From: Pseudomonadota bacterium
GTDB lineage: Bacteria; Pseudomonadota; Alphaproteobacteria; RF32; CAG-239
Direction: 5' to 3'
NCBI GenBank assembly: GCA_918234285.1
Contig: CAKJXZ020000058.1
Location: forward strand, 1-62,216
DNA length: 62,216 nt
Shown here: piece after piece, positions 6,424 to 62,216 of the stretch
Layout of the letters: every line of letters starts with the position of its first letter
Position numbering within the stretch: the stretch's first letter is position 1
The notes under the pieces: model-generated
The model's input: the letters and a program-made list of their open reading frames with translations, nothing else
What the model was told of the DNA's origin: nothing
Database searches by the model: none
Made by a program: the position numbers and the translations under genes

Positions 6424-9400
6424 AGTTTTGACCGTTATTAAGAACGAGCTTATTCGCTATTTTGTGTCGCCGCTCGCTTATGTTTATTTGTTTTGCTTTG
6501 TGATTCTCAATGCTTCTTTTGCCACTTATTTCGGTAACTTTTTCAATCGCGGACAGGCTGATTTGTTGGCAATGTTTGCTTTTCAGCCTTGGTTATATTT
6601 GTTATTTATTCCGGGAATTTCGATGCGCTTGTGGGCCGAAGAATTTCATTCCAAAACCATCGTACAGATTGCCACCATGCCGATTTCCATTACGGCGCTG
6701 GTGCTCGGAAAATTCTTTGCCGCATGGATATTCAGCGGTATTGCTCTGCTACTGACTTTTCCGTTTTGGATTACCATAAACGCTCTCGGTACTCCGGATA
6801 ATTTTGTGATATTTATGGGTTATTGTGCCAGTTTTGTATTGGCGGGCTGTATGCTCTCGATTTCGCAGATTATGTCGGCACTGACCAAAAATCAGATTAT
6901 TGCTTTGGTGCTGGCGGTAATTGCCAATTTATTGTTTTTCTGGAGCGGTATTGAATACGTGCTGTCATTTTTCCGACCGTTTTTACCGGATGCGATTATC
7001 GACGTTATAGCTTCATTCAGCTTTATTACGCATTTTAATACCATAACACACGGCTTACTCTCCTTGAGCGATGTCATTTTCTTATTATCGCTGATAATTT
7101 TCGGTAATTACACGACTATCTTGATTATCAATTTCAAAACAGCCGGAACTTCCGGATGGTTAAAATCGGGTAGCAAAAGTTATACCATAGTCGCATGGAT
7201 ATTATTGTTAATCGGCTTTTTCGGTATCAATATCATCTCCGACAATTTGGCGGTTAATCTGCAATATGACGGCACTGCCGAGAAAAATTTCACGCTGACG
7301 CAAAATACTGCAAATATACTCAAAAATCTCAAGGAACCGGTTACGGCAAGATTGTATTTTTCACCGGTTTTAGGACAGCGTAATTCCGAATTGCGCGAAC
7401 AGTTCGATAATATACGTATTCTGTTGCATAAATATAAAAATGTATCCGGCGGTAATTTTGATTATAAAGTTTATTATCCGGAATTCTTGAGTAAAGAAGA
7501 AGATTTGGCTATCGCAGACGGTGTACAATCCATCCCGCTGATTGATATAAATCAAACGGCCCTGTTTGGTATGACGGTTGAAGACAGTTTGCAAAATAAA
7601 GCGGTTATTCCGTTTTTTGCCACCAGCCAATTCGGGCGTCTGGAACAAGATATAACTTCCAAAATTCATCAATTGTCAAAAGACAAGAAAAAAATCGGCG
7701 TTTTAAGCAGCATTCCGGTTTTCGGGCGCGATTTGGAAAAAGAAGGCGCTATTTATGATGATACCTGGGAAATAATCAAAATGATGGACGAAGATTATCA
7801 TGTTCACCGCATTATGTCTTCCGACGATTTCGATAAATATCAGTTTGATGCAGTAATCATTATCTATCCTAAATCTTTAACCGACGATACCTTAAATAAG
7901 GTCAAAGATTATGCCCGAAACGGCGGCAAAATAGTGCTGATTTTGGACCCGGCCAACGAAGCTTCGCGACTGTATGCTCCGGTGCAAGGGAAATTGGAGC
8001 CGTCGGATTCCGAATTTTTTGAAAACCTTTGGAACTTCAAATTTTATAAAGATTACGTGGTGGCGGATTTGGAAAATTCCATCACGGTCGATGCTACCAC
8101 CGACTATACCAAAAATCCGGTGTTTTCACAAGACGTAATTCAGTTCCGTCTGCACTCAGATGCAATGAATCCGAAACATCCGATTACTTACAATCTCCAG
8201 GAGATAATGATGGCCTCGGCTACGGCCATTATGCCTGATTTACAGAAATATCGCGAAAACAAAATAGCTTTTTATCCGCTGCTGAAAGCCGGAGACATTT
8301 CGGCTATGATTCCGGCCAGCAACGTTATTGACGGACTCAATCCGCAAGATGTTCTCGAAAATTTCCGGCCGGATGAAGGCAATAAATTTATGGCTGCCGA
8401 AATTATAGGCTTAGAACCGGAAAATCCGTATGATGTAGTTGTATTTGCCGATACCGACTTCCTGTACGATCGCTTTTGGATGGATAAAGTATATTTACTC
8501 GACAGCGAATACGTAACGGCGATTTTTGATAATGCCAACCTTTTGTTCAATACTATTGATTATCTGGTCAATGACTACTCGCTCCTCGGTTTGCGCGGAA
8601 AGCGGGTTTGGGAACGACGCTTTGACGATATCGAACTTATGCGGCGCCTGAATTCTTTGCAATACAAGCAAAAAGAAAGGGAAATTTTCGAAAAAATCGA
8701 AGATGCCAAGCGTTCTTTGCAGGAAGTTTGGGGTAAAAAAGCGTTTGAAGGACGCGAAAGCTTTACTGCCGATGAAATGGCCGCGTTGTCGCAAATCCGA
8801 AACCGATTGACCGAATACAAAAAACAATTAAGTGAGGTACGCGGTCAGGCTTATAATGATATCAGTACCGTGGCGGCAAAAATCAATTTTCTCAATATTT
8901 GGGTATTACCGATATGTTTCGGTGTTATTTTACTGTTGATTTTGTTTATTCGCTTTATTCGGCGCAAAAAATCTTTTGCTCTCGGTTTGCACATCAACCG
9001 CAGATTATGTTTATTGGCCGCCGTTTGTGCGCTCATTTTCCTTGGCGCGATGATCTCGATATATGCAGTTAATCGCAGCAATATAGATTCATATGAAAAT
9101 AAACCTGTCTTTCCGCAACTTATGAATCAGCTCAACAGTATTGATAATATTGTTTTGAAAACCAACAAAACCGAGCTTAATTTCAAACTTAAAGACGGAG
9201 TTTGGGTGCTTGAAAGTATGCCGTATTTGCCGGTATATCAGGAACGTATCCGCCGATTTTTGACCACTGTTGCCGACGCACGCTATTTTGCTCGTAAAAG
9301 TGATAAAGCCGAAAATCTGGCGATGTTTAATTTGTTGCCGATTGAAGATGAAAAATCCGAGGCTATTTCCGTTGATTTGAACAGCGCTGGTAAAGCCGTA

Positions 9401-9889
9401 CAGCATTTCTTGCTGGGAGATACCGATGTTGATATCGGCCGCAGTTCTAAAGCTGCTTATATGCGTTTTGACGACCAATTCCAGGTTTGGGAAATCAGTG
9501 CCGATTTCGTCGACATGGATTTGGATTGGCATAAGTGGACCTATTCCAATATTTGGGATTTGCGCTATGGCAGACCGTATGACCGTCATCAAAATCCGAA
9601 AGACGAAATGTATCTTACCAACCTGGTTAAAGTTTTGTTGAATGTACCTTTTGAAGAAGTTATCGATAAGCCGGCCGGTGAGCCGCAGAAAATCTTAAAG
9701 CTCGATATTGAAGGCGGCAACTACGTTGATATTGCTTTCTATAAAACCGCAGATAAAGCTTATATTACCTACAGTCAGGATAAAAATAATCCTAACAAGC
9801 ATTTAAAATTGTTGCAACAATTCTTAGGTAATAAAGCGGCGGTTATTGATACACAAAAAATGGAGATGCTTCTTGAAATTATTAAGTAA
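6416..9889 (+). CDS. Fused ABC-2 permease (GldF-like) + GldG-like + DUF4340-like protein
   Basis: N-terminal YFVSPLAY...IPGISMRLWAEE permease; central DGTAEKNFTLTQNT...EQDIT...DNANLLFNTIDYL GldG-like region; C-terminal soluble domain after two TM helices. Confidence 0.8.
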   Translation: MNKVLTVIKNELIRYFVSPLAYVYLFCFVILNASFATYFGNFFNRGQADLLAMFAFQPWLYLLFIPGISMRLWAEEFHSKTIVQIATMPISITALVLGKFFAAWIFSGIALLLTFPFWITINALGTPDNFVIFMGYCASFVLAGCMLSISQIMSALTKNQIIALVLAVIANLLFFWSGIEYVLSFFRPFLPDAIIDVIASFSFITHFNTITHGLLSLSDVIFLLSLIIFGNYTTILIINFKTAGTSGWLKSGSKSYTIVAWILLLIGFFGINIISDNLAVNLQYDGTAEKNFTLTQNTANILKNLKEPVTARLYFSPVLGQRNSELREQFDNIRILLHKYKNVSGGNFDYKVYYPEFLSKEEDLAIADGVQSIPLIDINQTALFGMTVEDSLQNKAVIPFFATSQFGRLEQDITSKIHQLSKDKKKIGVLSSIPVFGRDLEKEGAIYDDTWEIIKMMDEDYHVHRIMSSDDFDKYQFDAVIIIYPKSLTDDTLNKVKDYARNGGKIVLILDPANEASRLYAPVQGKLEPSDSEFFENLWNFKFYKDYVVADLENSITVDATTDYTKNPVFSQDVIQFRLHSDAMNPKHPITYNLQEIMMASATAIMPDLQKYRENKIAFYPLLKAGDISAMIPASNVIDGLNPQDVLENFRPDEGNKFMAAEIIGLEPENPYDVVVFADTDFLYDRFWMDKVYLLDSEYVTAIFDNANLLFNTIDYLVNDYSLLGLRGKRVWERRFDDIELMRRLNSLQYKQKEREIFEKIEDAKRSLQEVWGKKAFEGRESFTADEMAALSQIRNRLTEYKKQLSEVRGQAYNDISTVAAKINFLNIWVLPICFGVILLLILFIRFIRRKKSFALGLHINRRLCLLAAVCALIFLGAMISIYAVNRSNIDSYENKPVFPQLMNQLNSIDNIVLKTNKTELNFKLKDGVWVLESMPYLPVYQERIRRFLTTVADARYFARKSDKAENLAMFNLLPIEDEKSEAISVDLNSAGKAVQHFLLGDTDVDIGRSSKAAYMRFDDQFQVWEISADFVDMDLDWHKWTYSNIWDLRYGRPYDRHQNPKDEMYLTNLVKVLLNVPFEEVIDKPAGEPQKILKLDIEGGNYVDIAFYKTADKAYITYSQDKNNPNKHLKLLQQFLGNKAAVIDTQKMEMLLEIIK

Positions 9890-33890: not shown

Positions 33891-35414
33891 ATGTTGGCAC
33901 GCGTTAACACCATAGCTTTTAACGGTTTGAACACGCTCGATGTAGATTTGCAGCTGCAGATTTCATCGGGCATGCCGGCTTTCAACATTGTGGGATTGCC
34001 GGATAAAACCATTGCCGAAAGCAAAGAACGCGTGCGCGCCGCCTTAAATACCATGGGGATTGAGTTGCCGGCCAAGCGTATTACCATTAATCTGGCGCCG
34101 GCCGATTTGTTGAAAGAAGGTTCGCATTTTGACTTGCCGATAGCGCTGGCTCTGCTCGCCGGTCTGGGAATTGTTCCGGCGGAAGAAGTGGCCGATTATG
34201 TGGTTATCGGCGAGCTCGGTCTGGACGGCGCGATTATGCCGGTTAACGGCGCATTGCCGGTGGCAATTCATGCCAATCGCATCAACAAGGGTTTGATTTG
34301 TCCGGAAGCCCAAGGGGGTGAGGCCGTCTGGTCTGGTCTGAAAGAGATTATTGCCGCACCGACGCTGTTGGCACTGATTAATCACTTGAAAGGCGTTCAA
34401 CAACTGCCGCAACCGGAAGTAAAACGCAAAAAAACCAAAATTTCCGACTTGGATATGGCCGATGTCAAGGGGCAGGAAACCGCCAAACGCGCGCTTGAAA
34501 TCGCCGCGGCCGGTGCTCACAATATGCTGATGATCGGCACTCCGGGTGCGGGAAAATCAATGTTGGCCTCGCGGCTTGTAACCATTTTACCGCCGCTGAC
34601 AACCGAAGAAGCACTGGAAACGTGTATGATTCATTCGATTGCCGGCGAGCTTAAAAACAGCGAAATCAGCTTTGAACGGCCTTATCGCGACCCGCACCAC
34701 AGCGCTTCGACACCGGCGCTTATCGGCGGCGGACGCAAAGGTGTTCCGGGGGAAATTTCGCTGGCACACAACGGTGTTTTGTTTTTAGACGAGTTGCCGG
34801 AATTTAACCGTTCCACTCTGGAGGCGCTGCGTCAGCCGATTGAAACCGGATATGTGACAATTTCACGCGTGCACTGTCATACGCAATATCCGGCCAATTT
34901 TCAGCTGGTGGCGGCGATGAACCCTTGTCGTTGCGGTTATTTGGGACAAAGCGGACAGGAATGTTCGCGGGCACCGCGTTGTGCCGAAGAATATCAATCC
35001 CGAATTTCCGGTCCGATGATGGATAGGTTTGATATTCATATTCAGGTACCTCCGGTCAGTCCGTGGGATATGGCAGAGGTCAAAAAAGGAGAAAGTTCGG
35101 CGGTTATTCGCCAACGCGTGGTTGCGGCGCGACAAATTCAGCAACAAAGATTTAACGAGCTGGGATATCCGCATTTGCACACAAATTCACAGCTCAAGGG
35201 AGATATTTTGGAGGAAGTAACACAACTGGACAGCGATGCAAAGAGCCTGTTGGTGGGCTTTGCCGAAAAAATGAAAATGTCGGCGCGGGCCTATCATCGC
35301 ACTTTAAAACTGGCCAGAACAATTGCAGACTTGCAAAATGAAAAAAAAGTGTCTAAAGTACACATAGCGGAGGCGTTGTCATACAGATATGTTATGCCGT
35401 CGAAACAGGTATAG
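33891..35414 (+). CDS. comM: YifB/ComM Mg-chelatase-like AAA+ ATPase
   Basis: VGLPD...ESKERVR, NLAPADLLKEGSHFDL, GTPGAGKS, GEISLAHNGVLFLDE, AAMNPC. Confidence 0.93.
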   Translation: MLARVNTIAFNGLNTLDVDLQLQISSGMPAFNIVGLPDKTIAESKERVRAALNTMGIELPAKRITINLAPADLLKEGSHFDLPIALALLAGLGIVPAEEVADYVVIGELGLDGAIMPVNGALPVAIHANRINKGLICPEAQGGEAVWSGLKEIIAAPTLLALINHLKGVQQLPQPEVKRKKTKISDLDMADVKGQETAKRALEIAAAGAHNMLMIGTPGAGKSMLASRLVTILPPLTTEEALETCMIHSIAGELKNSEISFERPYRDPHHSASTPALIGGGRKGVPGEISLAHNGVLFLDELPEFNRSTLEALRQPIETGYVTISRVHCHTQYPANFQLVAAMNPCRCGYLGQSGQECSRAPRCAEEYQSRISGPMMDRFDIHIQVPPVSPWDMAEVKKGESSAVIRQRVVAARQIQQQRFNELGYPHLHTNSQLKGDILEEVTQLDSDAKSLLVGFAEKMKMSARAYHRTLKLARTIADLQNEKKVSKVHIAEALSYRYVMPSKQV

Positions 35415-35424
35415 GAGAAAACAA

Positions 35425-37905
35425 ATGAAACAAAATAAAAATGCATTATATGCACTGGCTGCCGTTCTTACCATGAGCACGGCCGTTGCCGGTATTGCCA
35501 TGGCTGATGCCGATATTGAGGTAACAGTCTACACACCGCCGGTAATCGCAGCACCGGAGCCGATTGTTCCGGCACCGCAACCGGTGTATATCAAAGAAGA
35601 AGTTGAACAAGTTGTGGTAGAACAACCGCAACCGGTAGTGGTTGAACCTGCCCCGATGCCGTGCAGCAGCCCTACTCAGGATTGCTATATTGCACCGCAA
35701 CCGGCGCCGGAGCCTGTGGTTGAACCAGCCCCGATGCCGTGCAACAGTCCGGCTCAGGATTGTTATGTTGCACCGCAACCGGCACCGATACCTGTAGCCG
35801 AACCTGAACCGCAACCGGAGATTGCCCGTACCGGCATTCCGTGCGACGGACCGGAAGAAGAATGCAATCACGTTCCGCCGGCGGATAGAGACGGAAGTCT
35901 GTTCCCGGGCGGCAAATGCTCTAACTGTATCGACAACAAAAAAGAACCTGTTGTTGCGGCAGCACCTGTAGCCGAACAACCGAGAGAATTTGTATATACC
36001 GGTATTCCGTGCGAAGGTGAAGAAGATTGCGAACACGTTCCGCCGGCAGATAGAGACGGAAGTCTGTTCCCGGGTGGCGAATGCAGCAGTTGTACCGGCA
36101 AAAAAGTTAAAGTTCCGGGAACTTGCAACAGATGTGCACGTCAGGCCGAACGCCGCTTAGAATTGCGCAATTACGTTCCGTATACGCCGGTTGTTTACGA
36201 AGCAATGCAACGTAATTGCTGCCAAATGGCTCCTATTGCTTTGGATCACGTTGATTTCCGTATCAAAAAGAAAGGTGTCGACGGCCCTTATACCAGCCGC
36301 CTCGGCAACTATCGTTTTCGCATTTTCGGCTGCCGTCGTTTTAACAAAGAAGCACGTTTGAACAGTGGCAGAATCTTGGAAAAGAACATCAATTTCAACA
36401 CGGTGTTTGAAGAAGCCGTCGGCGATTGCTATAAAGTTTTGCCGGCGCCGAAAGATTTGTGTCTGCAAACCGTACCGACCGATATGCCGGAATATATCTT
36501 AACCGCAGAAATTACCAATTATTTCATGAACGTCTGTGATGAATACGATTGGAATAATGCCGAAAAGAAGAATTCTCGCAACGGTACTTCGGAAATTACC
36601 GTAACCTGGCGTTTGATGAACCTGACCAAGAGCGAAGTTCTGTGGAAGGGCGAAAGCACCGGATACGGCGAACTTTATGAGGGCGAAAAGAATGGTGAAA
36701 ACAAGCTGATTGAGCGTGCTTTTGCCGATGCTGCCTCTAATTTGCGTGCCATGACCGGTTTTGAAGACAGATTAATGCAACGTCTGGCACCGCAAGAAAT
36801 TGCCGCTCAGCGTTGGTCCATAATTGAAGAAGAACGCGCTCTTAACCCGATTAAGTGCGGCTATCGCAAAGAATATGATTGCGCACACACCTGCGAAATC
36901 GGCAATCCGGCTTTTGATGCGACCAAGTGCCAAACTTCCTGCAGTTGCACCGCTCCTACCTGTCAGGCACCTGCTGTTGAAGTAAAACCGGCACCGGCTC
37001 AGCCTTGCTATGCCGTGGTTGAAGGCGTAAAAGTTCCGGCTCCGTGCGAACAGCCGGTTGTTCAGCCGGTTGCTCAACCGATTGATACCTGCTATAACGC
37101 GGCCGGCGAATTTGTTGAGAACAGCGTATGTAAAGTTGTTGACGACACCTGGGTTGATACGGGTGACACAACGGCATTGGATACTTTGTGCGTTACGGCC
37201 AGCAATCCGTGCCAAAAGTTAACACCGGAAACCATGTATCGCCTGCGTTCTTCGGTAGTGCAGATTACCAGTCCGAACGGTCGTAAAGGTGCCGGTTTAC
37301 TGATTTCCGACCGCTTGATTTTGACATCCGGCGATTTGGTAAGCCCTACCAATAACAGCTACGCCATCAAGACCGTTCGCAATACGGAAATGAGCGGCCG
37401 TGCCGTCAGAGTAAATCCGAGCAAAAACACCGCGCTGATTATGCTTGACGAGAGTACCGAATATACTCCGCTTGCGCTGAATCTCAACTTGCCGGAAGTC
37501 GGTAAAAACGGCTTTTTAACTCTGGGTGTTTTGAATGTCGATGACTTCAAAGACGGCGAAGATTATCTGGAAAACAGTGCCAAAATCGAAGGTTATCGCT
37601 ACAGCGAAGAAAAAGGTGCGGAAATTTTAGCCAATACCTTTATTCAAAACGTGACGGTCGGCGGTGCTTTGTTTTATAAGGACTGCACGGTCAGCGGTAT
37701 GGCTCATTCCGGCATCAAAACCGATGATGGTATGGATATTTATGTTCCGACCGAAACGGCTCTGCGCAGCTTGGGCATAAGTATTTGCAACCATGAATAT
37801 GTTGAAGAAAGTCCGTGGCAACAGACTATTTATAAGCCTGTAACCCAACAGATTCAAATCATTCAACAAGCTCCGGAAGCGATGCCGGTTCAAGAAAGAA
37901 AATAA
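35425..37905 (+). CDS. Secreted Pro/Cys-rich protein with a C-terminal inactive trypsin-like domain
   Basis: Start MKQNK after AGGAG; signal peptide; internal repeats; SSVVQITSPNGRKGAGLLISDRLILT trypsin-like signature. Confidence 0.7.
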   Translation: MKQNKNALYALAAVLTMSTAVAGIAMADADIEVTVYTPPVIAAPEPIVPAPQPVYIKEEVEQVVVEQPQPVVVEPAPMPCSSPTQDCYIAPQPAPEPVVEPAPMPCNSPAQDCYVAPQPAPIPVAEPEPQPEIARTGIPCDGPEEECNHVPPADRDGSLFPGGKCSNCIDNKKEPVVAAAPVAEQPREFVYTGIPCEGEEDCEHVPPADRDGSLFPGGECSSCTGKKVKVPGTCNRCARQAERRLELRNYVPYTPVVYEAMQRNCCQMAPIALDHVDFRIKKKGVDGPYTSRLGNYRFRIFGCRRFNKEARLNSGRILEKNINFNTVFEEAVGDCYKVLPAPKDLCLQTVPTDMPEYILTAEITNYFMNVCDEYDWNNAEKKNSRNGTSEITVTWRLMNLTKSEVLWKGESTGYGELYEGEKNGENKLIERAFADAASNLRAMTGFEDRLMQRLAPQEIAAQRWSIIEEERALNPIKCGYRKEYDCAHTCEIGNPAFDATKCQTSCSCTAPTCQAPAVEVKPAPAQPCYAVVEGVKVPAPCEQPVVQPVAQPIDTCYNAAGEFVENSVCKVVDDTWVDTGDTTALDTLCVTASNPCQKLTPETMYRLRSSVVQITSPNGRKGAGLLISDRLILTSGDLVSPTNNSYAIKTVRNTEMSGRAVRVNPSKNTALIMLDESTEYTPLALNLNLPEVGKNGFLTLGVLNVDDFKDGEDYLENSAKIEGYRYSEEKGAEILANTFIQNVTVGGALFYKDCTVSGMAHSGIKTDDGMDIYVPTETALRSLGISICNHEYVEESPWQQTIYKPVTQQIQIIQQAPEAMPVQERK
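35641..36084 (+). repeat. Two intragenic direct-repeat pairs
   Basis: VEPAPMPCxSPxQDCYxAPQPAP twice (78-nt spacing); TGIPCxG(P)EExCxHVPPADRDGSLFPGGxC twice. Confidence 0.85.
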
Positions 37906-47669: not shown

Positions 47670-50600
47670 TTAACTCGGTCTCGCGCTGCAAGTACAGCAT
47701 ACATAGTCCGCCGTACTGGACGGAGATGTACAACTCGGTACTCTCTTATTGTCACCGCAGGCTTTGGTGTATTGAGGCATATTGCTCTTGCCAACTTCCG
47801 CCTGACCGCTCGGGCACTTACTGGTGCTCGGAGTCTGATTAGGATTACTGCTGCCTACTTTGCTGACAGGGCAACCTTGACCTTGATAACAACAGTATTC
47901 TTCAATAGAGGAAACTGATCCGTATTCTCCGTAAACATCAGATTTGTTGCCACTGGTAGCACAACAGAATCCCGAACTCTCCATGCTGGTGACTAAGGTA
48001 GTATTATAGCACTGTCTGTTAGTACTGTTATTATTGCAGTAATTATATACATTACATACCGTGTTGTACTTACGACCGTACATATAACTATCACAGTTAC
48101 CGATTTCATACTTATATTTCGGCCATGCATACTTTTTCATATACTCATTTGCTGCCTGAGTACCTTGGTACGCTTCACCGAGGTATTCCCAGCCGTCAGC
48201 AGAAGAGTATTTCTTACTGCAATCTACTTTCTTGTTGCCTGTGGTACCACTACCGCTACTGGCGCATACGGTTTTGCCGTTAGGTTGCTTATTAGCAGTT
48301 GTGCCGCTTTTGCATTTATACTTCTTTTCCGCTCCGCATCCCGGATCACACTCCTCATAATTGTCAGTAGTGTTCTTGATGAATTCGGACTCGGCATAAG
48401 TATATCCGGAGCAAGCTTTCGGAGTGCAGCTAGAGCTACACGTATAGCACGTGGATCCGGCATCCGTGGTTCCAGCCGCCTTATAAGTGTAATACATGCT
48501 TGACGGATCTTGGGTGCCGCTTGTTTTGCTGATACTCACGCAATCGTTCGGGTCCTTGGTCTGTCCCGAAGGGCATGTATCATTCTTACATTGATAGCAA
48601 CTCGAACCGTCCTTTGTTGAAGAGCCGCTGGACACACATTTTTGTGTAGACATGCACTGGCCGGAACAATTGCTGGAAGCACTGCCTTTATCGCACTGGC
48701 AAACTTTGCTGGTGTCGAAATAGGTCCTTCCGTCATCCGAAACTTTGGATTCGTTGCATGAACTGTTAGACGTGGTCTGCCATTGGCTACCCCACGGAAC
48801 ACAGTTCTTATAACGGGTTTGACCATTGCAGGTAATCTTGTCGCAAGTCATTGCTCCGTTCAGTTCGGATTGCAGCTTACCTTCACAGCCTTCGCAAGCG
48901 CAAGCTGTGGTATTGGCTTTTTTGCCGGTGCCGCAAGCTTGGTCGCTGATTTTGCAAGTACAATCATAGTAAGCCCAACTTGCACCGAGTTTAATCTTTT
49001 GGCAACTTACGTACGGATTGCCTGTGCAAGATTGACCGTTCGGACAAATCGGAGTAGACATACACGACTTACCTGCCGGGCAGGTGTTTGCCTCACACCG
49101 TTTGCAAACCGCATCTCCGGATTTATTGTTGGTTTCGACTATATGGTAACCGCCGATATCGCCTGTCGGGCAGTTTGCTGCAGATACGTCGGTTGACGTG
49201 CCGCTCGGGCATTCTTGTTTCACCCACTTACAGTAGCCCTGATCTAAAGTGTAACCTGTCTTAGTTTTACCAATCAACGTACAACGACAATTGGTTAATT
49301 TGGTGCTATCGCCCAACTTAATCGTTTGACATTCAACATCCGGATTGTTTGCACAAGATGTGCTGTTCGGACAAACCTTAGTATCGGTGCAGATCTGGCC
49401 GCTTGGACAAGTTTTTGCCGTACATTTACCGCAGTCAGCATTGCCGGATTTACCGTTTTTGCTGAATTCATATCCCTCAGGACATGAGGTTACTTTCGTG
49501 TCATATCCTACCGGACAACCGGCGTCACGGCATTCGCAACGATTATCATCAAAGGTTTGCCCTTCTGTGCACGAACTTGCAGTGATTTTGCACTTACAAT
49601 TGGTATACATTTTTTCCGCACCGAGCGTGATCGGATCACATTTAATATTAGGGTTCGGATCACAACTCGTTCCATCCTTACACTGTATCCAAGGTTTGCA
49701 AATTTGTCCTGCCGGACAAGTTTCTTTGACGCAACGAGCGCAAACGGCATCACCGGCCTGACTGTTCGATTTTTCGAGCTTCCAACCAGGTTCACACGAA
49801 GTTATGCCTTTATCAAAACCGGCTTCGCAGTCTTTAGAAGTGCAACTGCAGTTTTCTTTATCCACGTTAAAACCGGCGCCGCAGTTAATGGCCGAAGGCT
49901 TACACTTACAATCGAAAAACTTGGTGCCGTTACCGACCGGTTTGCTGTCGCAGTCAACTTTACCCGAACAAGGATTGCCGTTCGGACAAACCGGTTCATC
50001 AGTGCAGTCTTTACCTGCAGGACAATCCTCGGAAACGCATTTATAGCAGTAGGAACCGTCGCTTCTTTGGGTTTTAGTCAATTTGAAGCCGGCCATACAT
50101 TCTTGTTCAGCTTCGCTGTAACCGGCAGGGCATGTTTCCGCATCTTGTGGAATTTCGATTGCTCTGTGACACGTTTTACCGGATTCGAGCACCTTGACGT
50201 CATAGCCCTCAGAGGCAGGTGCATCACCATCAATCCATCCGGCTCCGCAATTGTTATTGTTACATTTGTAGCAGATTTGACCCGAAACTGAAGTTTTGCC
50301 GTTAGGTTGAGCAACACTGTTGCCATCGGCACAAACGGTTGATAACTGGCCGCTTTCGCAACTATCCTTATAAATGCGAATACCCACGGTCTTGGTATCA
50401 ACAGTTGTGTCTACGTGCGTTTGAATCAGCGTCATTGTACAACCTGCTTCATTTTCACTCTTATTAGGCGGGCAGGTAACCGTAACTTTATCACCCGATT
50501 GGGATTTGGAAGCCGAGCACGAACAAGCCGTCAGAGATACATTATATTCCCACGGCTCCGCTTCGTTACCTATGTGTTTAGATGTAACCGCAACACTCTT

Positions 50601-51476
50601 AGTGCCGCCGGAAGCATCAAATTGCAATAACGACGGGTTAACAGTAAATTCATACGTGTAATCCCTACACTTACACATTGTCTTACCGTTAACGACTTCT
50701 TCAGATAAGTATTGATCACTCTTTTCGCCACAGGTTCTTTTTGTTCCTTTATAGCACAATTCGCCGTCAGCCGCACTCTTTGTTGTGAAATCGTAGCAGG
50801 AAGTATCATGAGTTGCCAAAAACTCACTTTCCGGTTGGTAACTTCCCATAGTTTTACATTTATAGCAAGGGTTGCCGCCATAACCGGTATCACCTACGTT
50901 AGCGCACTCATAGCATCCGGTCGGAATTACCGAACTTGAACCCTCCGGACAAGTTAGTTCCGAATTAGAGACGCAAACGCCGCATATTTCGATACCGGAT
51001 CTGTTTACAGGTGTTTCCGGCTCAATAAGAGTCTCGTTTTCTGCGCATTCGCTACGAGTTTTATAATTACCGGCACATGGTTTAGGCAAGCATTTCCAGA
51101 AATAGTCGGCCCCTTCCAGACAAGATTCGCAAATCCATGCATTCGAGGAATATCCCAGAGGCAGATGAGTTTTACTGTCTGTAGGACCGAGTTTAAATCC
51201 TTTATTTTCGCATGACATGCCCGTGCACTCATATAATGAGCAACCGGAAATATTAACGACCGAACAACTCATCCCTTCTTGTTCGGTTTTGTAATATCTC
51301 CCCATTGCAACATACTCGTCACACGACTTCTGCTCATCTGCTTTTGCCGTAGCCCCTCTTTCGCAGTCACCTGTCGGCAAGAAACAGATGTCTGCCCAAG
51401 ACGGTGCTACATGAATCATACACGAGAGTATACACATGTACGCGCATCTTTTGATTGTTTTAGCTATAGATAACAT
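47670..51476 (-). CDS. Large secreted Cys-rich repeat protein with BACON-like domain
   Basis: 1268 aa, ADICFLPTGDCE, about four ~100-aa Cys repeats, AAGGAGG RBS. Confidence 0.8.
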   Translation of the reverse strand: MLSIAKTIKRCAYMCILSCMIHVAPSWADICFLPTGDCERGATAKADEQKSCDEYVAMGRYYKTEQEGMSCSVVNISGCSLYECTGMSCENKGFKLGPTDSKTHLPLGYSSNAWICESCLEGADYFWKCLPKPCAGNYKTRSECAENETLIEPETPVNRSGIEICGVCVSNSELTCPEGSSSVIPTGCYECANVGDTGYGGNPCYKCKTMGSYQPESEFLATHDTSCYDFTTKSAADGELCYKGTKRTCGEKSDQYLSEEVVNGKTMCKCRDYTYEFTVNPSLLQFDASGGTKSVAVTSKHIGNEAEPWEYNVSLTACSCSASKSQSGDKVTVTCPPNKSENEAGCTMTLIQTHVDTTVDTKTVGIRIYKDSCESGQLSTVCADGNSVAQPNGKTSVSGQICYKCNNNNCGAGWIDGDAPASEGYDVKVLESGKTCHRAIEIPQDAETCPAGYSEAEQECMAGFKLTKTQRSDGSYCYKCVSEDCPAGKDCTDEPVCPNGNPCSGKVDCDSKPVGNGTKFFDCKCKPSAINCGAGFNVDKENCSCTSKDCEAGFDKGITSCEPGWKLEKSNSQAGDAVCARCVKETCPAGQICKPWIQCKDGTSCDPNPNIKCDPITLGAEKMYTNCKCKITASSCTEGQTFDDNRCECRDAGCPVGYDTKVTSCPEGYEFSKNGKSGNADCGKCTAKTCPSGQICTDTKVCPNSTSCANNPDVECQTIKLGDSTKLTNCRCTLIGKTKTGYTLDQGYCKWVKQECPSGTSTDVSAANCPTGDIGGYHIVETNNKSGDAVCKRCEANTCPAGKSCMSTPICPNGQSCTGNPYVSCQKIKLGASWAYYDCTCKISDQACGTGKKANTTACACEGCEGKLQSELNGAMTCDKITCNGQTRYKNCVPWGSQWQTTSNSSCNESKVSDDGRTYFDTSKVCQCDKGSASSNCSGQCMSTQKCVSSGSSTKDGSSCYQCKNDTCPSGQTKDPNDCVSISKTSGTQDPSSMYYTYKAAGTTDAGSTCYTCSSSCTPKACSGYTYAESEFIKNTTDNYEECDPGCGAEKKYKCKSGTTANKQPNGKTVCASSGSGTTGNKKVDCSKKYSSADGWEYLGEAYQGTQAANEYMKKYAWPKYKYEIGNCDSYMYGRKYNTVCNVYNYCNNNSTNRQCYNTTLVTSMESSGFCCATSGNKSDVYGEYGSVSSIEEYCCYQGQGCPVSKVGSSNPNQTPSTSKCPSGQAEVGKSNMPQYTKACGDNKRVPSCTSPSSTADYVCCTCSARPS

Positions 51477-56644: not shown

Positions 56645-56830
56645 ATGGCTTTGAAGAGAATCGCATTATTTTTGGCACTGCTCGGCGGTATTAACTGGGG
56701 TTTGGTCGGTGCATTCAAATTTGATTTGGTGACGTTTGTATTCGGCTTTTTCCCGATTTTGGTGCCGGTTATACAAATCATTATCGGTATTGCCGCTTGC
56801 TACGCTTTGTTTACATATATGATAAAATAA
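56645..56830 (+). CDS. DUF378 family small membrane protein
   Basis: GGINWGLVGAFKFDLV; AAGGAG RBS. Confidence 0.85.
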   Translation: MALKRIALFLALLGGINWGLVGAFKFDLVTFVFGFFPILVPVIQIIIGIAACYALFTYMIK

Positions 56831-56860
56831 ACAGATATTCATAAGCTTTGACGCCGCGGA

Positions 56861-57358
56861 TTATCTTTCTGCGGCGTCTTTATTTTGCATACGCTCCAAA
56901 GCGCGATACAAGGCCGGACGCATAAACTTGCCGCGCCAAATACCGCGTTTATGTTCTTTGGCGCTTTGTTCTTCTTTATCGTATTTGTTACTGCGATAAG
57001 CTACGGCGTATCCGGCAAAAATCATCGTTTTATTCAGCGAAACACCATCGGCAAAGCACTCGCATATTTCACGGTTGTATTTATCCTTATCTTCCAGGCA
57101 ATCACACCGCACTTCGGCATTTTTTAATAAGTTTTCGAGATATTGCAACGAATCCAGTCCGCACGGATATTCCCGATTATCGGCATCGTAGCAGATCTGC
57201 ACAAACTCCGGTGCATCGATGCCGTCCAATCTGATACGTCTTTCGCCCTGTTCCAGCGAATCGCCGTCCACGGCTTTGTATTCCGGCGGTGCGGCAAAAA
57301 CATCCGCCGCCGCAAACAAAAGCCCGATAAACATACAAATTGCTTTAATCTTTTTCAT
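56861..57358 (-). CDS. Secreted thermonuclease (SNase-like)
   Basis: VDGDSL, IRLDGIDAPE, DKYNR, GYA, KRGIW. Confidence 0.92.
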   Translation of the reverse strand: MKKIKAICMFIGLLFAAADVFAAPPEYKAVDGDSLEQGERRIRLDGIDAPEFVQICYDADNREYPCGLDSLQYLENLLKNAEVRCDCLEDKDKYNREICECFADGVSLNKTMIFAGYAVAYRSNKYDKEEQSAKEHKRGIWRGKFMRPALYRALERMQNKDAAER

Positions 57359-57477
57359 ATTTATCATATTAACGCATAATTTTTTTTGTTCAATCATAAT
57401 TTTATTTACTTTTCGTTCATATTATCCTGTTATTGTAGCCTAAAGAACTATAAGCTTATTTTGATAAAGGTATCGCG

Positions 57478-58860
57478 ATGTTAAAACAAATAGGATTCCT
57501 CTCAATGTTCGGTCTGTTCGCGTTTGGCGCACGGGCAGTTTCGGCGCAAACTTATGTTGATCCGATGATGGATATGCAATATGCGCAGCCACAGCAATAC
57601 GCACAGCCGCAACCAAATATTCCACCACAATACGCACAGCCGCAAGCAAATGCTCCGCAACAGCAAAAGGCTCAACCAAAAGTAAAAATGCCGTCTTCAA
57701 TCATTGTTTGCCGTTCCAAACAATGTGCTCCGGCTAAGTTGTCGCAGTCAAAAGAGTATATTTTCAACACCCTTTTGCATATGTTTGACAGCAACGCCAG
57801 ACAGAAAGCTCTGGTTTGCGAAGGGAATGCCCAAACGCATGCTTGCACTGAAGAATATGTTTCCGTGCCGATTACGGTGGGTGTGACACCGGCATATATG
57901 TATATCGATACCGTAAAAATTACTGATGTTTCGATGAATCCGCAGAACACGATGGCGTTGAATCTGGTTTTGAACTGGAACGTTACTTATAACGGGCAAA
58001 CCCCTACTTGTCGTCCGAGTAAAACCTTGCTTCATGTCAAAAACGTAAACAATGTTCTGATTCAGGATAACGGCTACACTTGCCGTATGACCACCATCGG
58101 TACTACCACGATTCAAACCATGTTTGCCGTTGATTATATTGACATGGATTACGGCTATATTGGCGGATTTTATTCCATCGGCTTATCCGGTCCGGCTTTC
58201 GGCGGCGGCAACGGTTATATGATGTTGCGGTTACCGAATGACGTAACCATTGAAGCTAAAGATTTCTCGACGGATGCTCCGGTCGAAGACAATAATCCGT
58301 TTGCTCCGCAGGCGGTTGAGTCAGCTCCGGAGATAAGCATGCCGCAATTAACCGTTCCGGCTCCGCAACCGGTTGTTCCGACTCCGCAGCCTTCGGCAGC
58401 AATGGGACAATATATTTATAATGCGTATACCGGACAGTTTATTCCTCTGCCGACCATGCCATATACGACTCCGATGCCGACGACCCCAATGATGCCGGCT
58501 CAGATGATGCCGGCTCAGATGATGCCGAATCCGATGATGCCGGCAGCTATGGCTCCGGTAGCCGACCCGAATCACGTTCCGGCTCCTAATGTTAAATCGA
58601 CAATTAAGTATAATCATCCGGCCAAACAATATGATGAGGCGCAAGAATTGGCACGCATCAGAGCAGAAAAAGATGCCAAAACCAAGGAGCACATGCGTCA
58701 CGAGCTGGAAAGAAGAAAGAAAATGGAACAGGAAGCGGTTGATTTCGGCGGGGCCAAAGTGTTCCCGTTACCGGCCGGCAAGAAAGTTGACAAAACAGGC
58801 CCGACCGATCCGAACAGCCTGAGTGATTATGCACCGACGGAAAGTCGTCGCTTCGAATAG
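57478..58860 (+). CDS. Secreted hypothetical protein with Q/P/M-rich low-complexity tracts
   Basis: Signal peptide; QYAQPQ three times; MMPAQ tandem repeats; central Cys-containing globular domain. Confidence 0.7.
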   Translation: MLKQIGFLSMFGLFAFGARAVSAQTYVDPMMDMQYAQPQQYAQPQPNIPPQYAQPQANAPQQQKAQPKVKMPSSIIVCRSKQCAPAKLSQSKEYIFNTLLHMFDSNARQKALVCEGNAQTHACTEEYVSVPITVGVTPAYMYIDTVKITDVSMNPQNTMALNLVLNWNVTYNGQTPTCRPSKTLLHVKNVNNVLIQDNGYTCRMTTIGTTTIQTMFAVDYIDMDYGYIGGFYSIGLSGPAFGGGNGYMMLRLPNDVTIEAKDFSTDAPVEDNNPFAPQAVESAPEISMPQLTVPAPQPVVPTPQPSAAMGQYIYNAYTGQFIPLPTMPYTTPMPTTPMMPAQMMPAQMMPNPMMPAAMAPVADPNHVPAPNVKSTIKYNHPAKQYDEAQELARIRAEKDAKTKEHMRHELERRKKMEQEAVDFGGAKVFPLPAGKKVDKTGPTDPNSLSDYAPTESRRFE

Positions 58861-58881
58861 ATTCAGCTTAATATAAGCCAC

Positions 58882-58914
58882 AAAAAACGTCTGATTTATT
58901 TTAGACGTTTTTTT
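58882..58914 (+). terminator. Intrinsic terminator
   Basis: AAAAAACGTCT...AGACGTTTTTT. Confidence 0.8.
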
Positions 58915-58928
58915 GTATAAAATTTTGC

Positions 58929-58957
58929 TTGCAAATTAGTAAAAGTTATGTTAACAT
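58929..58957 (+). promoter_or_regulatory. sigma70-type promoter of the large lipoprotein gene
   Basis: TTGCAA-17 nt-TAACAT with TG extension. Confidence 0.55.
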
Positions 58958-59126
58958 CAATTTTGCAAAATTACCTATTGTGCCTATAATTAAGAGAAGA
59001 AGTACCAATTTTACTTCTTTTCGCAGGTGATTTTATGTGCATTGTACTTTCCTAGAACAACTATGTTGTTTTACGGTCTCTAGATATATAGCAAACAAAA
59101 ATCATACATTTCAAAAAAAACAAGTT

Positions 59127-62100
59127 ATGGAAACGAAGAATGGTTTAACAAGAGCATTCAAGTGGATGGTAGCGCTATTCGCTGCTGTCATGTGTTTCAC
59201 CGCCTGCGAGCAATTCAAGGGCGAAGTGACAACAAAGTCCGAGGACGAACCGGCAATACCGTCCGTCTCAGGATTCGCCTACGCAGTAACTTTGGAGCAT
59301 TCCATTGACACTGCCCAGAAGGTCAAGGTCAGTGACCAGATGACCGCAGGGTTGACGATATGGACAACCGAGGACGGCGCAAAAAAGGACAAGGTGTTCG
59401 AGAACAAGGAGTATCCCAAGATGGAAGCTTATTCCCGTCTGGCGCGTGAGAATTACAACATTACTCGTGCGCAGCTCGACATTCGTCCTACCTCTGAGAA
59501 CATTGCTCGCGATGAGGGCAAGGACAACGACGGTAACAAGCTTGAGTTGGACACCGTGTACCATTACTACGCAGATGCGCAGATAATGAGTATTCCGGTG
59601 AAGATTACAAGCAAGACCGTAGAGTACGAAAATGAGGTGTACAACTATCCCTCTGTGACGTTGGTAAAAGCCGAGTTCGTTCACCTCAAGAACAAAGAGA
59701 TTAGTGCCAAGGCTCGTACCCGTGCAACTTATGTGTCCGGGGTTTATGACACCGAGTACAAGGTAAATCTCTACTTGAAGGAAACGGGCATTAAGGACAA
59801 CCCCAAGAGTTTTGTGTTGCCCATTTATGCATTTACCCAACGCAGCGTGCTTGACGAAGATGCCATTGAGAAAGTGGTGGCCGAGAACAAAACCCGCGAG
59901 CTGCTCGACAGCTTAAGGGAGAGATGCTCGTTTGAGAGAGTCACAACTTGGAAATCGGGTGAAACGACTCGGGAGAAGATTGAAATCATCCTTCAGCACA
60001 AAGTGGACAAGATTGCCCCCTACAAGAAGGACGTAAAGAATTTCAATTATCAGCTGGCACAAGTGAACGGCATCCAGCCGGGTAGCGAAGCAGAAAACCG
60101 CACCGAGGGCAACTGGAAGGTATGGCGCAAAACCGACACCTATTCAGCTGACCACGCAAACGGTGTTAATGCCGATAAGATCACTACCGATTATTCTCTT
60201 ATGCACGAACGTGCAACCTATAAAGATGATTATCTTGAGGTTGATTTCGACTATGAGGATTATCGCGTAGATGAACTTGCTACCAACGTAACGCCGATGA
60301 ATTCCGATCGCGAAGGTTACACCGAGGCTTTGTTCGATAACCGCATCAACACGACCTATATCGCTTACAGGCAGCAGGTCAATGAGCTGGTTTATCTGTA
60401 CAAGGCTGACAAGAAGGCTGAAGACTACAAGTTTGAGAATCCGAAAGTAACGGTCTACAACGACTCCGTAACCACTGATATTGATTTCATCATTATCTTT
60501 GATGACGGCACCAGGGAAAAGATTCATGATCACCTCAAAGCCGCACGTTCTCTGAGATGTCTCACCGACTGGGTTTCTAACCAGAAGATGGCTTCGCAGA
60601 TTACAAGCGATGAGGTAAGAGTTAATCTGCTCTCCGGCGACGAAGTCAAGAACGGCTACTGGAAGTACACCAAACAGACTCGTAAGCTTTCTTCCGACGC
60701 TACCCTGTACGACGGTTCGGTTATGCCAAACGAATGGGAAGCTATTGTTCCTAACGGATTTGTTTATTCCCGCGAGGGTAAGACTTATACGTTTGACAAT
60801 ATTGCATTCAACGTGAAGCAGATGGGCGGTTCGCTCACCGCAGCCGGCGAAAAGGACGGTTTCTCTTTGCATAAGTACGGCGACGCAATCGACGTGATTT
60901 ACGGAGATAATACTCAGCGCTCAGTTGCACCCGGATTGGTAAAAATCAGCAATAACACTGTTGAAGGTTACGAAATCCGCAACAAGCAGATGAGTATCAC
61001 TCCGGACAAGGTCGTGGTTTCTCTCGACTTTATCACGAAGTTCGTCAATGGTAACGAAAGTAAAGACCCCGTTGTAAGGGAGTTCCCGCGTAGCCTTGTT
61101 CTGAACACAAATTGGACCGCTAACGAGAATTCTGCTACCGAAAACACTGCTGCCCCGACCTTTACTCTGGCCTCGGCCAACAACAGGGAAGACGGCGAGT
61201 GGAAGTGGAAGGAGGAAACACGCAACATTACAGCTACGGTTACATTGGCTGCAAGCCTGCAGACTAACGGCTGGACAAGCGTGGATCCGAATAACATCGT
61301 ATTCACACGCCAGGGCATCACGGCAGATTTCGGCACGTTGACATTCACAACCAACAAGGTATCCAGCACCGCTACTCTGAAGGAAAGCAACGCTAAGACG
61401 GAAACCTACGACTACGCCAATATCATTAGCGTACGTTACGGTAACTCGACGGCAAGCGACCTCCAGAACAGCACAGCTCCGGGTAAGATTATCGTGCAGA
61501 AGGCAAGAACCATTACCGGACACGAGTTCCGCGATCCGTCACTCACCGTTGAAACTGACTATGTGCTTGTCAAAATCACTTATGTCACCAAATTCAGCGA
61601 TGATACAGAGGAGAAGGAAACTTCAAATCTGAAGGTGAATCGTATTCTCAACCCGTACACTTCTTGGACATCAAGTGAGACAAATGCAAACGAAACCACC
61701 GGTTCCGCCAGCGTAAACCTCACCAATTCCGAGAACAAGACGGACGGTTATTGGAGCTTTGTTGCCGAAACACGCGACATTCGAACCAAGGCTAAGCTGG
61801 CCGGCAGTGAGCAGACCAACGGTTGGACTTCAGTTGATCCTAACAACTTTGTATACACCCGCGATGGGCAGCAATACAAGTTTGATAAGATTAACTTCAA
61901 TGCCTATGAGGCAGGTCATTCCGTGAATCTCTCCAGCGAGACGGCAACAGTTGCAACCTATGCTTACAGCGATAAGATCAACGTAAGTTTCGGTAACAAC
62001 ACCAAGTCGTCAAGCGCACCGGGTACTATCACGGTCAAGAAGGAAGTTACCATCACCGGTTACGATATTACCGATCCGAAGATTACCGTTAATCAGAATG

Positions 62101-62216
62101 ATGTGACCACGTCTCTGACATGGGTTACCAAGTATTCTGACGGAACCAAGAAGACTGAGGCAGTGAACAAGTCGTTCCCGCGCAGCTTCCGCGTTCTGAC
62201 CAACTGGTCGTCAAAG
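59127..62216 (+). CDS. Large repeat lipoprotein, Bacteroidota-like (3'-truncated by the window; not in the ORF track)
   Basis: Open for 1030 codons from METKNGLTRAFKWMVALFAAVMCFTA-C to the window edge; ~180-aa beta-rich repeats. Confidence 0.88.
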   Translation, partial: METKNGLTRAFKWMVALFAAVMCFTACEQFKGEVTTKSEDEPAIPSVSGFAYAVTLEHSIDTAQKVKVSDQMTAGLTIWTTEDGAKKDKVFENKEYPKMEAYSRLARENYNITRAQLDIRPTSENIARDEGKDNDGNKLELDTVYHYYADAQIMSIPVKITSKTVEYENEVYNYPSVTLVKAEFVHLKNKEISAKARTRATYVSGVYDTEYKVNLYLKETGIKDNPKSFVLPIYAFTQRSVLDEDAIEKVVAENKTRELLDSLRERCSFERVTTWKSGETTREKIEIILQHKVDKIAPYKKDVKNFNYQLAQVNGIQPGSEAENRTEGNWKVWRKTDTYSADHANGVNADKITTDYSLMHERATYKDDYLEVDFDYEDYRVDELATNVTPMNSDREGYTEALFDNRINTTYIAYRQQVNELVYLYKADKKAEDYKFENPKVTVYNDSVTTDIDFIIIFDDGTREKIHDHLKAARSLRCLTDWVSNQKMASQITSDEVRVNLLSGDEVKNGYWKYTKQTRKLSSDATLYDGSVMPNEWEAIVPNGFVYSREGKTYTFDNIAFNVKQMGGSLTAAGEKDGFSLHKYGDAIDVIYGDNTQRSVAPGLVKISNNTVEGYEIRNKQMSITPDKVVVSLDFITKFVNGNESKDPVVREFPRSLVLNTNWTANENSATENTAAPTFTLASANNREDGEWKWKEETRNITATVTLAASLQTNGWTSVDPNNIVFTRQGITADFGTLTFTTNKVSSTATLKESNAKTETYDYANIISVRYGNSTASDLQNSTAPGKIIVQKARTITGHEFRDPSLTVETDYVLVKITYVTKFSDDTEEKETSNLKVNRILNPYTSWTSSETNANETTGSASVNLTNSENKTDGYWSFVAETRDIRTKAKLAGSEQTNGWTSVDPNNFVYTRDGQQYKFDKINFNAYEAGHSVNLSSETATVATYAYSDKINVSFGNNTKSSSAPGTITVKKEVTITGYDITDPKITVNQNDVTTSLTWVTKYSDGTKKTEAVNKSFPRSFRVLTNWSSK

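Follow-up and report, generated by a model that had tools for sequence, protein, structure and literature searches.

The 62,216-nucleotide (nt) stretch analysed here in full (hereafter, the window), which is contig C58 (CAKJXZ020000058.1) of the alphaproteobacterial assembly GCA_918234285.1, ends within a giant lipoprotein gene that is native to its genus and conserved across it, and of which positions 59127–62216 represent the 5′ three quarters. We favour, with a probability of roughly 0.62, the interpretation that this gene encodes a lipid-anchored fibrillar surface adhesin, native to the genus, whose unusual codon usage and leader are maintained. The protein would be acylated at Cys27 and held in the outer membrane by its N-terminal acyl chains, tandem β-repeats of approximately 180 amino acids (aa) would serve as a spacer or stalk of variable length, and a distal unit (that is, the last repeat together with the C-terminal domain) would recognise a ligand that is probably a glycan. 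The analysis shows the gene, its architecture and distribution, the codon and leader signature with its conservation, and the homology of the distal module; that the protein is lipidated, lies at the surface and acts as an adhesin, and why the signature exists, are what we infer. Genus-wide conservation and the presence of matching contigs in an RNA library argue that the protein is functional in the lineage.

From an ATG at 59127 to the end of the window at 62216 (+ strand), the reading frame is uninterrupted and encodes 1,030 aa; it starts at this ATG and not at an upstream GTG (59037), as the starts of orthologues match the position of the ATG. The open frame running to the edge, the FTAC lipobox, the AKARTRAT motif and four repeats of approximately 180 aa, all of which had been described in an earlier sequence-only reading of this DNA, were found as described (Table 1). 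The signal peptide has the attributes expected by signal peptidase (SPase) II and Lgt (K4, R9, a hydrophobic helix at residues 6–25 and F-T-A-C27), with F at position −3 in departure from the classical L; in an alignment of 27 family members, at least 90% retain the Cys. The residues that follow (28–44) are probably a flexible tether, given that the predicted disorder of residues 19–43 fits such a role directly after a lipidated Cys. The repeats align end to end at 29–39% amino acid identity, and the three full units score 212–341, compared with 32 ± 5.6 (maximum 54) in 200 shuffles.

The window belongs to a genome of 2.0 Mb in 71 contigs (43.4% GC), and its last 118 nt are the reverse complement of the end of another of these contigs, C24, on which the lipoprotein frame carries on for 277 aa before reaching a stop and encodes a C-terminal domain of approximately 155 aa that is of β-type and rich in aromatic residues at conserved positions. 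Joining C58 directly to C24 gives 1,307 aa and four repeats, which is a minimum. Because read depth at 62049–62216 is two to three times that of the gene body in three DNA runs, loose contig ends lie at 62022 in four runs, and the two nearest public assemblies (L028 and L029) hold one extra repeat (the gene of L028 encodes 1,484 aa), we conclude that one or two further repeat copies probably collapsed during assembly and that the real number is probably five to six.

A word-indexed search retrieved 32 homologues (735–1,704 aa, 30–85% identity), in which Pfam recognises no domain; organism names are attached to three of them, all proteins of alphaproteobacterial metagenome-assembled genomes (MAGs). 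The plan of the family is constant and comprises a lipoprotein signal, an N-terminal domain (N-domain) of approximately 400 aa, three to six repeats of approximately 180 aa and a C-terminal domain (C-domain) of approximately 155 aa. Across 40 rows, which include the truncated proteins P0001, P0029 and P0031, four repeats occur in 21, six in 8, five in 5, three in 4 and one in 2, and the number differs among close relatives. Of 201 genomes in the order, 44 contain matches to a profile built from nine family members. The matches cover 27 of the 29 other genomes of the same genus, in long and short forms that often lie a few kb apart, and weak, partial matches alone occur in four further genera (g4, 7 of 11 genomes; g16, 4 of 4; g6, 4 of 24; g12, 1 of 2). 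The other 17 genera of the order sample gave no profile match, nor did 400 other genomes of the phylum sampled from 211 other genera. When 1.84 billion representatives were searched exhaustively with HMMER, only 190 proteins reached E ≤ 0.001, and a comparison of the C-domain with longer proteins in the word-indexed library returned the same family only.

Neither Pfam nor NCBIfam assigns the lipoprotein to a family: Pfam at E ≤ 1 gave a single, meaningless match (PF23763, E 0.91) and NCBIfam none. AlphaFold models were made from the family alignment for the N-domain and for the last repeat plus C-domain, the latter being all-β at a pLDDT of 95.4. Foldseek against the PDB returned no match for either model (TM ≤ 0.19), and the ESM Atlas returned no usable match for the N-domain. 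In a VIA-wide comparison the N-domain reached at best Z 4.6 (0 of 48,161 chains at Z ≥ 5) with generic immunoglobulin- or cadherin-like rows, and the best row for the C-domain was the fucose lectin AAL (5mxc_A; Z 5.4, root-mean-square deviation 4.5, 110 residues aligned), with the Ralstonia lectin RSL at Z 3.7, values below 8 being common by chance according to the note of the tool. Resemblances of this kind are too weak for naming a fold from the models of either domain. The family is uncharacterised, with three domains that have neither a Pfam or NCBIfam model nor a clear solved fold, and a literature search (rumen Alphaproteobacteria, horizontal gene transfer from Bacteroidetes, lipoproteins and codon usage) returned nothing relevant by title or beginning of the abstract.

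The same genome encodes a one-repeat paralogue (L010, C28:1862–4147; 761 aa, 27% identity, lipobox FSAC). It is followed by a signal-peptide protein of approximately 300 aa (L009, C28:4316–5296) of β-barrel-like sequence and without a family; the two genes share the G-ending codon bias described below, and the pair is adjacent in both other species for which the fetched region covers it, a few kb from the long gene. L009 could be a partner or exporter.

The sequence-only reading had proposed a cross-phylum-acquired or host-mimicking surface protein and had named a coverage or linkage break near 58900–59100, the sign of a chimeric assembly, as the finding that would overturn it. No such break is there. 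An alphaproteobacterial MAG (L028) and an uncultured proteobacterium (L029) are collinear with the window over 49.6–62.2 kb and, beyond it, with C24 in reverse from the end of that contig, and a contig from run X1 bridges 58603–60148 with 0 differences. Given the same gene order in two independent MAG assemblies and the bridging contig, the junction at 58.9–59.1 kb is not chimeric. The same observations bear on the explanation that the gene is a recent cross-phylum insertion, or the product of a mis-join at this position, whose codons have not yet ameliorated. The codon usage of the gene, which is in the extreme tail of its genome and nearer to that of a Bacteroidaceae contig than to that of its own genome, would fit this explanation, as would the missing Shine–Dalgarno (SD) motif and the location at a contig end; however, collinearity in two MAG assemblies, the bridging contig, the presence of orthologues in 27 of 29 congeneric species, the same signature in orthologues despite saturated synonymous sites, and the lack of any full-length homologue named as Bacteroidota largely refute it, and we regard it as scarcely credible. 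Every named full-length homologue is an alphaproteobacterial MAG protein.

The codon signature itself is pronounced. AAG/(AAA+AAG) stands at 0.81 where the genome averages 0.295 (99.7th percentile of 1,119 open reading frames (ORFs) of at least 200 aa), GAG reaches 0.56 (97.9th percentile) and GC content at third codon positions (GC3) 0.60 (98th percentile of the same 1,119 ORFs), and CAG is 0.85 compared with 0.40 in the genome; TTC, TAC, AAC and GAC are favoured, and GCG, TTA and ATA are shunned. The contrast drawn by the sequence-only reading with housekeeping genes holds, these using GAA strongly and AAA on average: the AAG/GAG fractions are 0.39/0.06 for EF-Tu and 0.36/0.07 for EF-G, and ribosomal proteins have AAG mostly at 0.25–0.6, GAG mostly below 0.3 and CAG around 0.3. 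Its remark on the lack of an SD motif is also correct, the 30 nt before the ATG being A/T-rich without a GGAG-type motif. Two candidate causes could be ruled out, namely a high-expression codon bias (EF-Tu, EF-G and ribosomal proteins rely on GAA and do not prefer CAG) and a missing tRNA (genes for tRNA-Lys(CUU), tRNA-Glu(CUC) and tRNA-Gln(CUG) are present; C34).

Orthologues carry the signature too. Among five further congeneric species and L028, the fractions for the long gene are 0.65–0.90 (AAG), 0.41–0.72 (GAG) and 0.72–0.93 (CAG); in six other genomes its orthologues have an SD-less, A/T-rich leader and are flanked by genes with GGAG-type SDs and AAG mostly at 0.03–0.35; and the short paralogue and its neighbour of approximately 306 aa are biased alike in the two species for which the fetched region holds them. 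Identity at four-fold degenerate sites between species is 49% for SufB, 42–45% for DnaB and SufD, and 30–37% for the lipoprotein gene, which is near saturation. Because the orthologues keep the signature although substitution at such sites would have erased the trace of a donor, the sequence comparison indicates that codon usage and leader are maintained, by selection or by a gene-specific process, and are not the residue of a recent transfer. The cross-phylum acquisition of the sequence-only reading, understood as a recent event, is therefore at odds both with the occurrence of the family in 27 of 29 congeneric species and with the conservation of the signature despite saturation. An alternative account of this persistence would be ongoing exchange within a habitat-wide gene pool.

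The distal unit has relatives in other proteins. The family profile also matches BspA-type leucine-rich repeat (LRR) proteins that also contain dockerin, MBG or Omp28 domains; here the repeat plus C-domain unit directly follows the signal peptide. One of these LRR proteins (P0112), encoded on a 42-kb metagenome contig, aligns with the end encoded on C24 at 26% identity over 297 aa (E 3e-22; profile E 1.2e-47). Because the relatives of the YifB encoded on the same contig that have an organism name (7 of 7 among the best 120 matches) are all labelled Bacteroidaceae bacterium, at 74–84% identity, sequence relationships indicate that a Bacteroidales relative of the distal unit exists. P0112 resembles the lipoprotein in this homologous unit of approximately 300 aa but differs in having it N-terminally, after an SPase-I-type signal and before LRR_5 repeats, and in having no lipobox, N-domain or stalk; a C-terminal domain of the type IX secretion system, guessed from its last residues, found no support in Pfam or NCBIfam. 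All relatives of the N-domain that were seen are alphaproteobacterial or carry no organism label. The C-domain (here approximately 150 aa) also lies inside proteins of 1,800–2,250 aa with CBM5/12 or beta-flower domains (P0114, P0142, P0106 and P0072), and two of five tested carriers of this very large kind match a virion-structural PHROG, which suggests from sequence that the domain may be used in phage receptor-binding proteins. Cluster look-ups for 20 of the distant matches yielded no names of organisms.

The codon vector of the lipoprotein gene correlates at r 0.75 with six genes flanking P0112, a Bacteroidaceae reference that consists of one contig only, compared with r 0.54 for its own genome, and only 5 of 708 ORFs of at least 300 aa, among them the paralogue and its neighbour, are nearer to this contig than to the genome average. 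These observations are relevant to the possibility that an ancestor at the root of the genus or family acquired the gene as a whole, or its distal module, from Bacteroidales and retained donor-like signals because they work or are selected in the new host. Such a history would be in keeping with a distribution that is patchy, matches being confined to a single family of the order and absent from all 400 other genomes sampled across the phylum, with the relative of the last repeat and C-domain on a Bacteroidaceae contig, with the Bacteroidales-like lipobox, leader and codon usage, and with a gene of similar codon usage that has a sub-threshold match to the PG1828 lipoprotein family. However, transfer may have run in either direction, no labelled protein from outside the alphaproteobacterial lineage was seen to have the N-domain, and the module is found in phage-like and dockerin proteins of unknown taxa, such that a phage or another phylum may be the source. 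We consider an ancient acquisition possible but rather unlikely; it is compatible with the adhesin interpretation, from which it differs on origin only.

The description of the protein as Bacteroidota-style holds as a likeness. Tandem β-domains behind an N-terminal lipid anchor are also the arrangement of SusE/F-type proteins, which the lipoprotein recalls, although no Sus match was found in sequence or fold. F at −3 occurs in 37 of 100 lipobox-bearing members of the superfamily, and at least two D/E residues at +2 to +6 in 63 of 100, as counted by a regular expression that sometimes takes an earlier Cys; together with the SD-less leader, the Bacteroidaceae-like codon vector and the distal homologue, these features support the description. 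In PMC5080379, the lipoprotein export signal (LES) is given as C-X-K-(D/E)2-X in C. canimorsus and SDDDD in B. fragilis, to which the acidic residues of the superfamily can be likened. The lipoprotein studied here differs from LES proteins in its alphaproteobacterial host and in its E-Q-F-K-G sequence after Cys27, which has only one acidic residue at +2 to +6. Typical-codon lipoproteins of the same genome may also be acidic after the Cys, and Gln at +1 of signal peptides was dropped as a Bacteroidota mark, as typical-codon genes of this genome have Gln as well.

The AKARTRAT motif had invited comparison with type V pilins. All 27 aligned members have Arg199, in the T-R-(A/S/G) core of the motif, and no other Arg is invariant. 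It lies 172 residues past the Cys and, in the model, between long strands (176–197 and 201–220), with a mean pLDDT of 60 for residues 191–200. Its role may be in cleavage or in binding. A type V pilus-like subunit would be a precursor cut after Arg199 by an Arg-specific protease, its own or that of a neighbour, and then released or polymerised by strand exchange. The lipoprotein precursor and the invariant Arg between long strands at a dip in confidence are what such a subunit would show, and Arg-gingipain processes the lipoprotein precursors of FimA and Mfa1 to their mature forms, as PMC8512630 describes; however, the same text places these cuts at Arg46 (FimA) and Arg49 (Mfa1), not at residue 199. 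The protein is also three to four times the size of a pilin, no FimA or Mfa Pfam family matches at E ≤ 1 and no NCBIfam model at all, and neither model has a pilin among its listed Foldseek rows or its 50 VIA rows (an unlisted family is not thereby excluded). No fim- or mfa-like operon is apparent around the gene, its neighbours encoding an SNase, a PQ-rich secreted protein and a cytoplasmic-looking protein. Peptidase C25 (gingipain, PF01364) was unmatched in the genome but also in the control genomes, which makes the search uninformative. The analogy fails on sequence families and Arg position and finds no support in the operon context, and we hold a pilus-like subunit to be very improbable.

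A fibrillar adhesin combines an anchor with a stalk built from tandem domains and, at its end, a domain of a different kind; the lipoprotein has all three, the anchor being predicted. As in SraP and the RTX adhesins, repeats of which are among the weak fold rows of the models, a stalk of tandem β-repeats (copy number 3–6) precedes a distinct terminal domain; the differences are that the anchor is an N-terminal lipid instead of an LPXTG motif, a type I secretion system or an autotransporter, that the repeats are of approximately 180 aa and match no Pfam stalk domain, and that binding is putative. Carbohydrate binding by the distal unit is plausible given its aromatic-rich conserved positions, the weak lectin-like rows and its reuse in LRR, dockerin and CBM surface proteins and in virion-like proteins.

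Most lipoproteins of Proteobacteria face the periplasm, and the protein might instead be a periplasm-facing outer-membrane lipoprotein or envelope scaffold. This background speaks for such a location, as does a search for the Slam family (PF04575), the exporter of surface lipoproteins, which gave no match in the genome; the control genomes were silent too, which makes the search uninformative. On the other side, a chain of 1,300–1,700 aa with an extended β-stalk would scarcely have room in the periplasm, secreted or surface proteins (LRR_5, dockerin and CBM5/12) and virion-like proteins share the distal module, and close relatives differ in their number of repeats, a common trait of surface proteins. 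We consider a periplasmic orientation improbable.

Several points nevertheless weigh against a surface adhesin, among them the silent Slam search. Lipidation, localisation and binding are predicted from sequence and models; the single acidic residue in E-Q-F-K-G gives no clear surface-export signal even by Bacteroidota rules; and the lectin likeness of the C-domain is weak. The phage assignment of some C-domain carriers goes back to two PHROG families, with phrog_24956 among the PHROG matches and one of the two families of unknown function, and a viral-contig scan with P0114 gave no match. To these may be added the single-contig Bacteroidaceae reference mentioned above and the author-chosen thresholds of the codon class described below. 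Lastly, the evidence from RNA consists of seven contig pieces in a bovine metatranscriptome run, at 97–100% identity and within 59981–62216, with none in 56800–59876; these pieces are assembled contigs from the one run found with the lipoprotein gene, in which DNA carry-over is possible and depth cannot rank genes, and the lack of cover at 56800–59876 says nothing on silence of the neighbours.

Table 1. Features of the lipoprotein gene and of the region directly upstream, in window coordinates.
Feature	Position	Strand	Basis or remark
Hairpin (stem 58886–58892 / 58903–58909), then T-run	58886..58915	+	Read from sequence; directly past the stop of the upstream gene
Candidate sigma-70-like promoter, TTTGCA-17 nt-TATAAT	58962..58990	+	10/12 consensus matches
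A/T-rich, G-poor leader without SD motif	59097..59126	+	Sequence; like the leaders of orthologues
Lipoprotein signal peptide, 27 aa, ending in FTAC lipobox (59196–59207); Cys27 predicted lipidation site	59127..59207	+	Sequence; conserved Cys; helix in model
Acidic low-confidence linker, residues 28–44	59208..59258	+	Sequence; model pLDDT < 50 for residues 19–43
All-β N-terminal domain, residues ~45–431, family-specific	59259..60420	+	Model pLDDT 85.7; no Pfam/NCBIfam match
AKARTRAT, core T-R-(A/S/G); Arg199 at 59721–59723	59706..59729	+	Sequence; family alignment
Repeat 1, ~182 aa	60421..60965	+	Repeat alignment
Repeat 2, ~184 aa	60966..61517	+	Repeat alignment
Repeat 3, ~180 aa	61518..62057	+	Repeat alignment
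Repeat 4, first 53 aa, ended by contig edge	62058..62216	+	Rest of a repeat and ~155-aa C-domain on C24

The hairpin is probably, to judge by its sequence and place, the terminator of the upstream gene, in which case the lipoprotein gene would be a separate transcription unit; a consensus scan did not list it, its 10-nt loop being beyond the limit of the scan. Two sigma-70-like sites in the region, compared with 1.0 ± 1.1 in shuffles, are weak evidence for a promoter. The upstream gene (57478–58860, +) encodes a 460-aa secreted protein with PQ/PM-rich low complexity, no family and typical codons, and before it lies a secreted SNase-type nuclease, also with typical codons (56861–57397, −); L028, L029 and G199 have both genes in synteny with the lipoprotein gene. 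The gene downstream (L016 2–1276 (−), corresponding to C24 ~82001–83275; in L028, 14576–16348, 590 aa) belongs to no family, has an SD and typical codons, lacks a signal peptide and looks cytoplasmic. Elsewhere in the window, a 1,157-aa ORF (6416–9889, +) matches the gliding-associated ABC permease GldF (E 2.8e-33) and GldG (E 2.9e-15) far under the curated cut-offs and is probably a general ABC-2-type fusion; two further ORFs, of 838 aa (35389–37905, +) and 1,268 aa (47670–51476, −), have no NCBIfam family at E ≤ 1e-5.

The lipoprotein gene does not stand alone in its codon usage. With thresholds of our own choosing (AAG above 0.6 and GAG above 0.45), 24 of 1,403 ORFs of at least 150 aa form a class that is spread over many contigs, and another threshold gives 32 of 1,634, that is, approximately 2% of ORFs either way. 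A strict SD at −18 to −5 is present in 3 of the 24, compared with 55% of the other 1,374. The class contains the paralogue and its neighbour, several small lipoproteins, secreted proteins and ORFan membrane proteins (for example, L007 (C28:56185–56862), L013 (C63:2618–4333), C30:47980–48474, C30:70596–71141, C30:100361–100825 and C19:7337–8170). Those members that were tested match no Pfam or NCBIfam family above cut-off; one gene has the sub-threshold match to the PG1828 lipoprotein family (E 1.8e-6). Four paralogous ORFans of 385–501 aa also belong to it (L011, C28:58399–59556; L014, C24:58143–59465; L012, C12:77443–78948; and C32:27654–28976), two of which have a GNPLSM motif near the N terminus, and three of the four share with C24:2636–3238 a near-identical leader, CAAAATTTT(T)ACA..T, directly before the ATG. 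Among leader hexamers only AAAATT is enriched in the class (9 of 32 versus 91 of 1,602), and this comes from a paralogous subfamily without involving the lipoprotein gene. A principal component analysis (PCA) of relative synonymous codon usage (RSCU) did not separate the class on components 1–3, where the lipoprotein gene is unremarkable, the signature being mainly in two-fold codons.

Initiation independent of an SD on A-rich leaders and the avoidance of A-rich Lys, Glu and Gln codons may go together. More speculatively, the genus may keep a selected, Bacteroidales-style expression regime for approximately 2% of its genes, with SD-less A/T-rich leaders, G-ending Lys, Glu and Gln codons and F-x-[AS]-C lipoboxes, or else the class may mark a pool of genes that have long passed between these bacteria, neighbouring Bacteroidales and the phages of the latter, and that serve attachment between cells in the rumen. 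Most genes of such a second regime would be ORFan envelope proteins, of which the giant lipoprotein would be the largest. We regard both the regime and this composition as unlikely, and put them forward tentatively. If the link were true, SD-independent initiation on A-rich leaders would favour the loss of A-rich codons in the coding region.

In summary, we have identified what appears to be the largest envelope protein of a widespread, uncultured alphaproteobacterial genus of the rumen and gut, and interpret it as a lipid-anchored fibrillar adhesin that is a candidate for the attachment of these small-genome bacteria to particles, host mucus or other microbes. Its shared distal module would tie together surface proteins of Alphaproteobacteria, Bacteroidaceae and phage-like elements of one habitat. 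Atypical codons and a missing SD are usually read as marks of recent foreign origin; here they persist in orthologues through synonymous saturation, and the case thus warns against calling horizontal transfer on the basis of codon usage and raises the question of whether translation signals may be specific to classes of genes.

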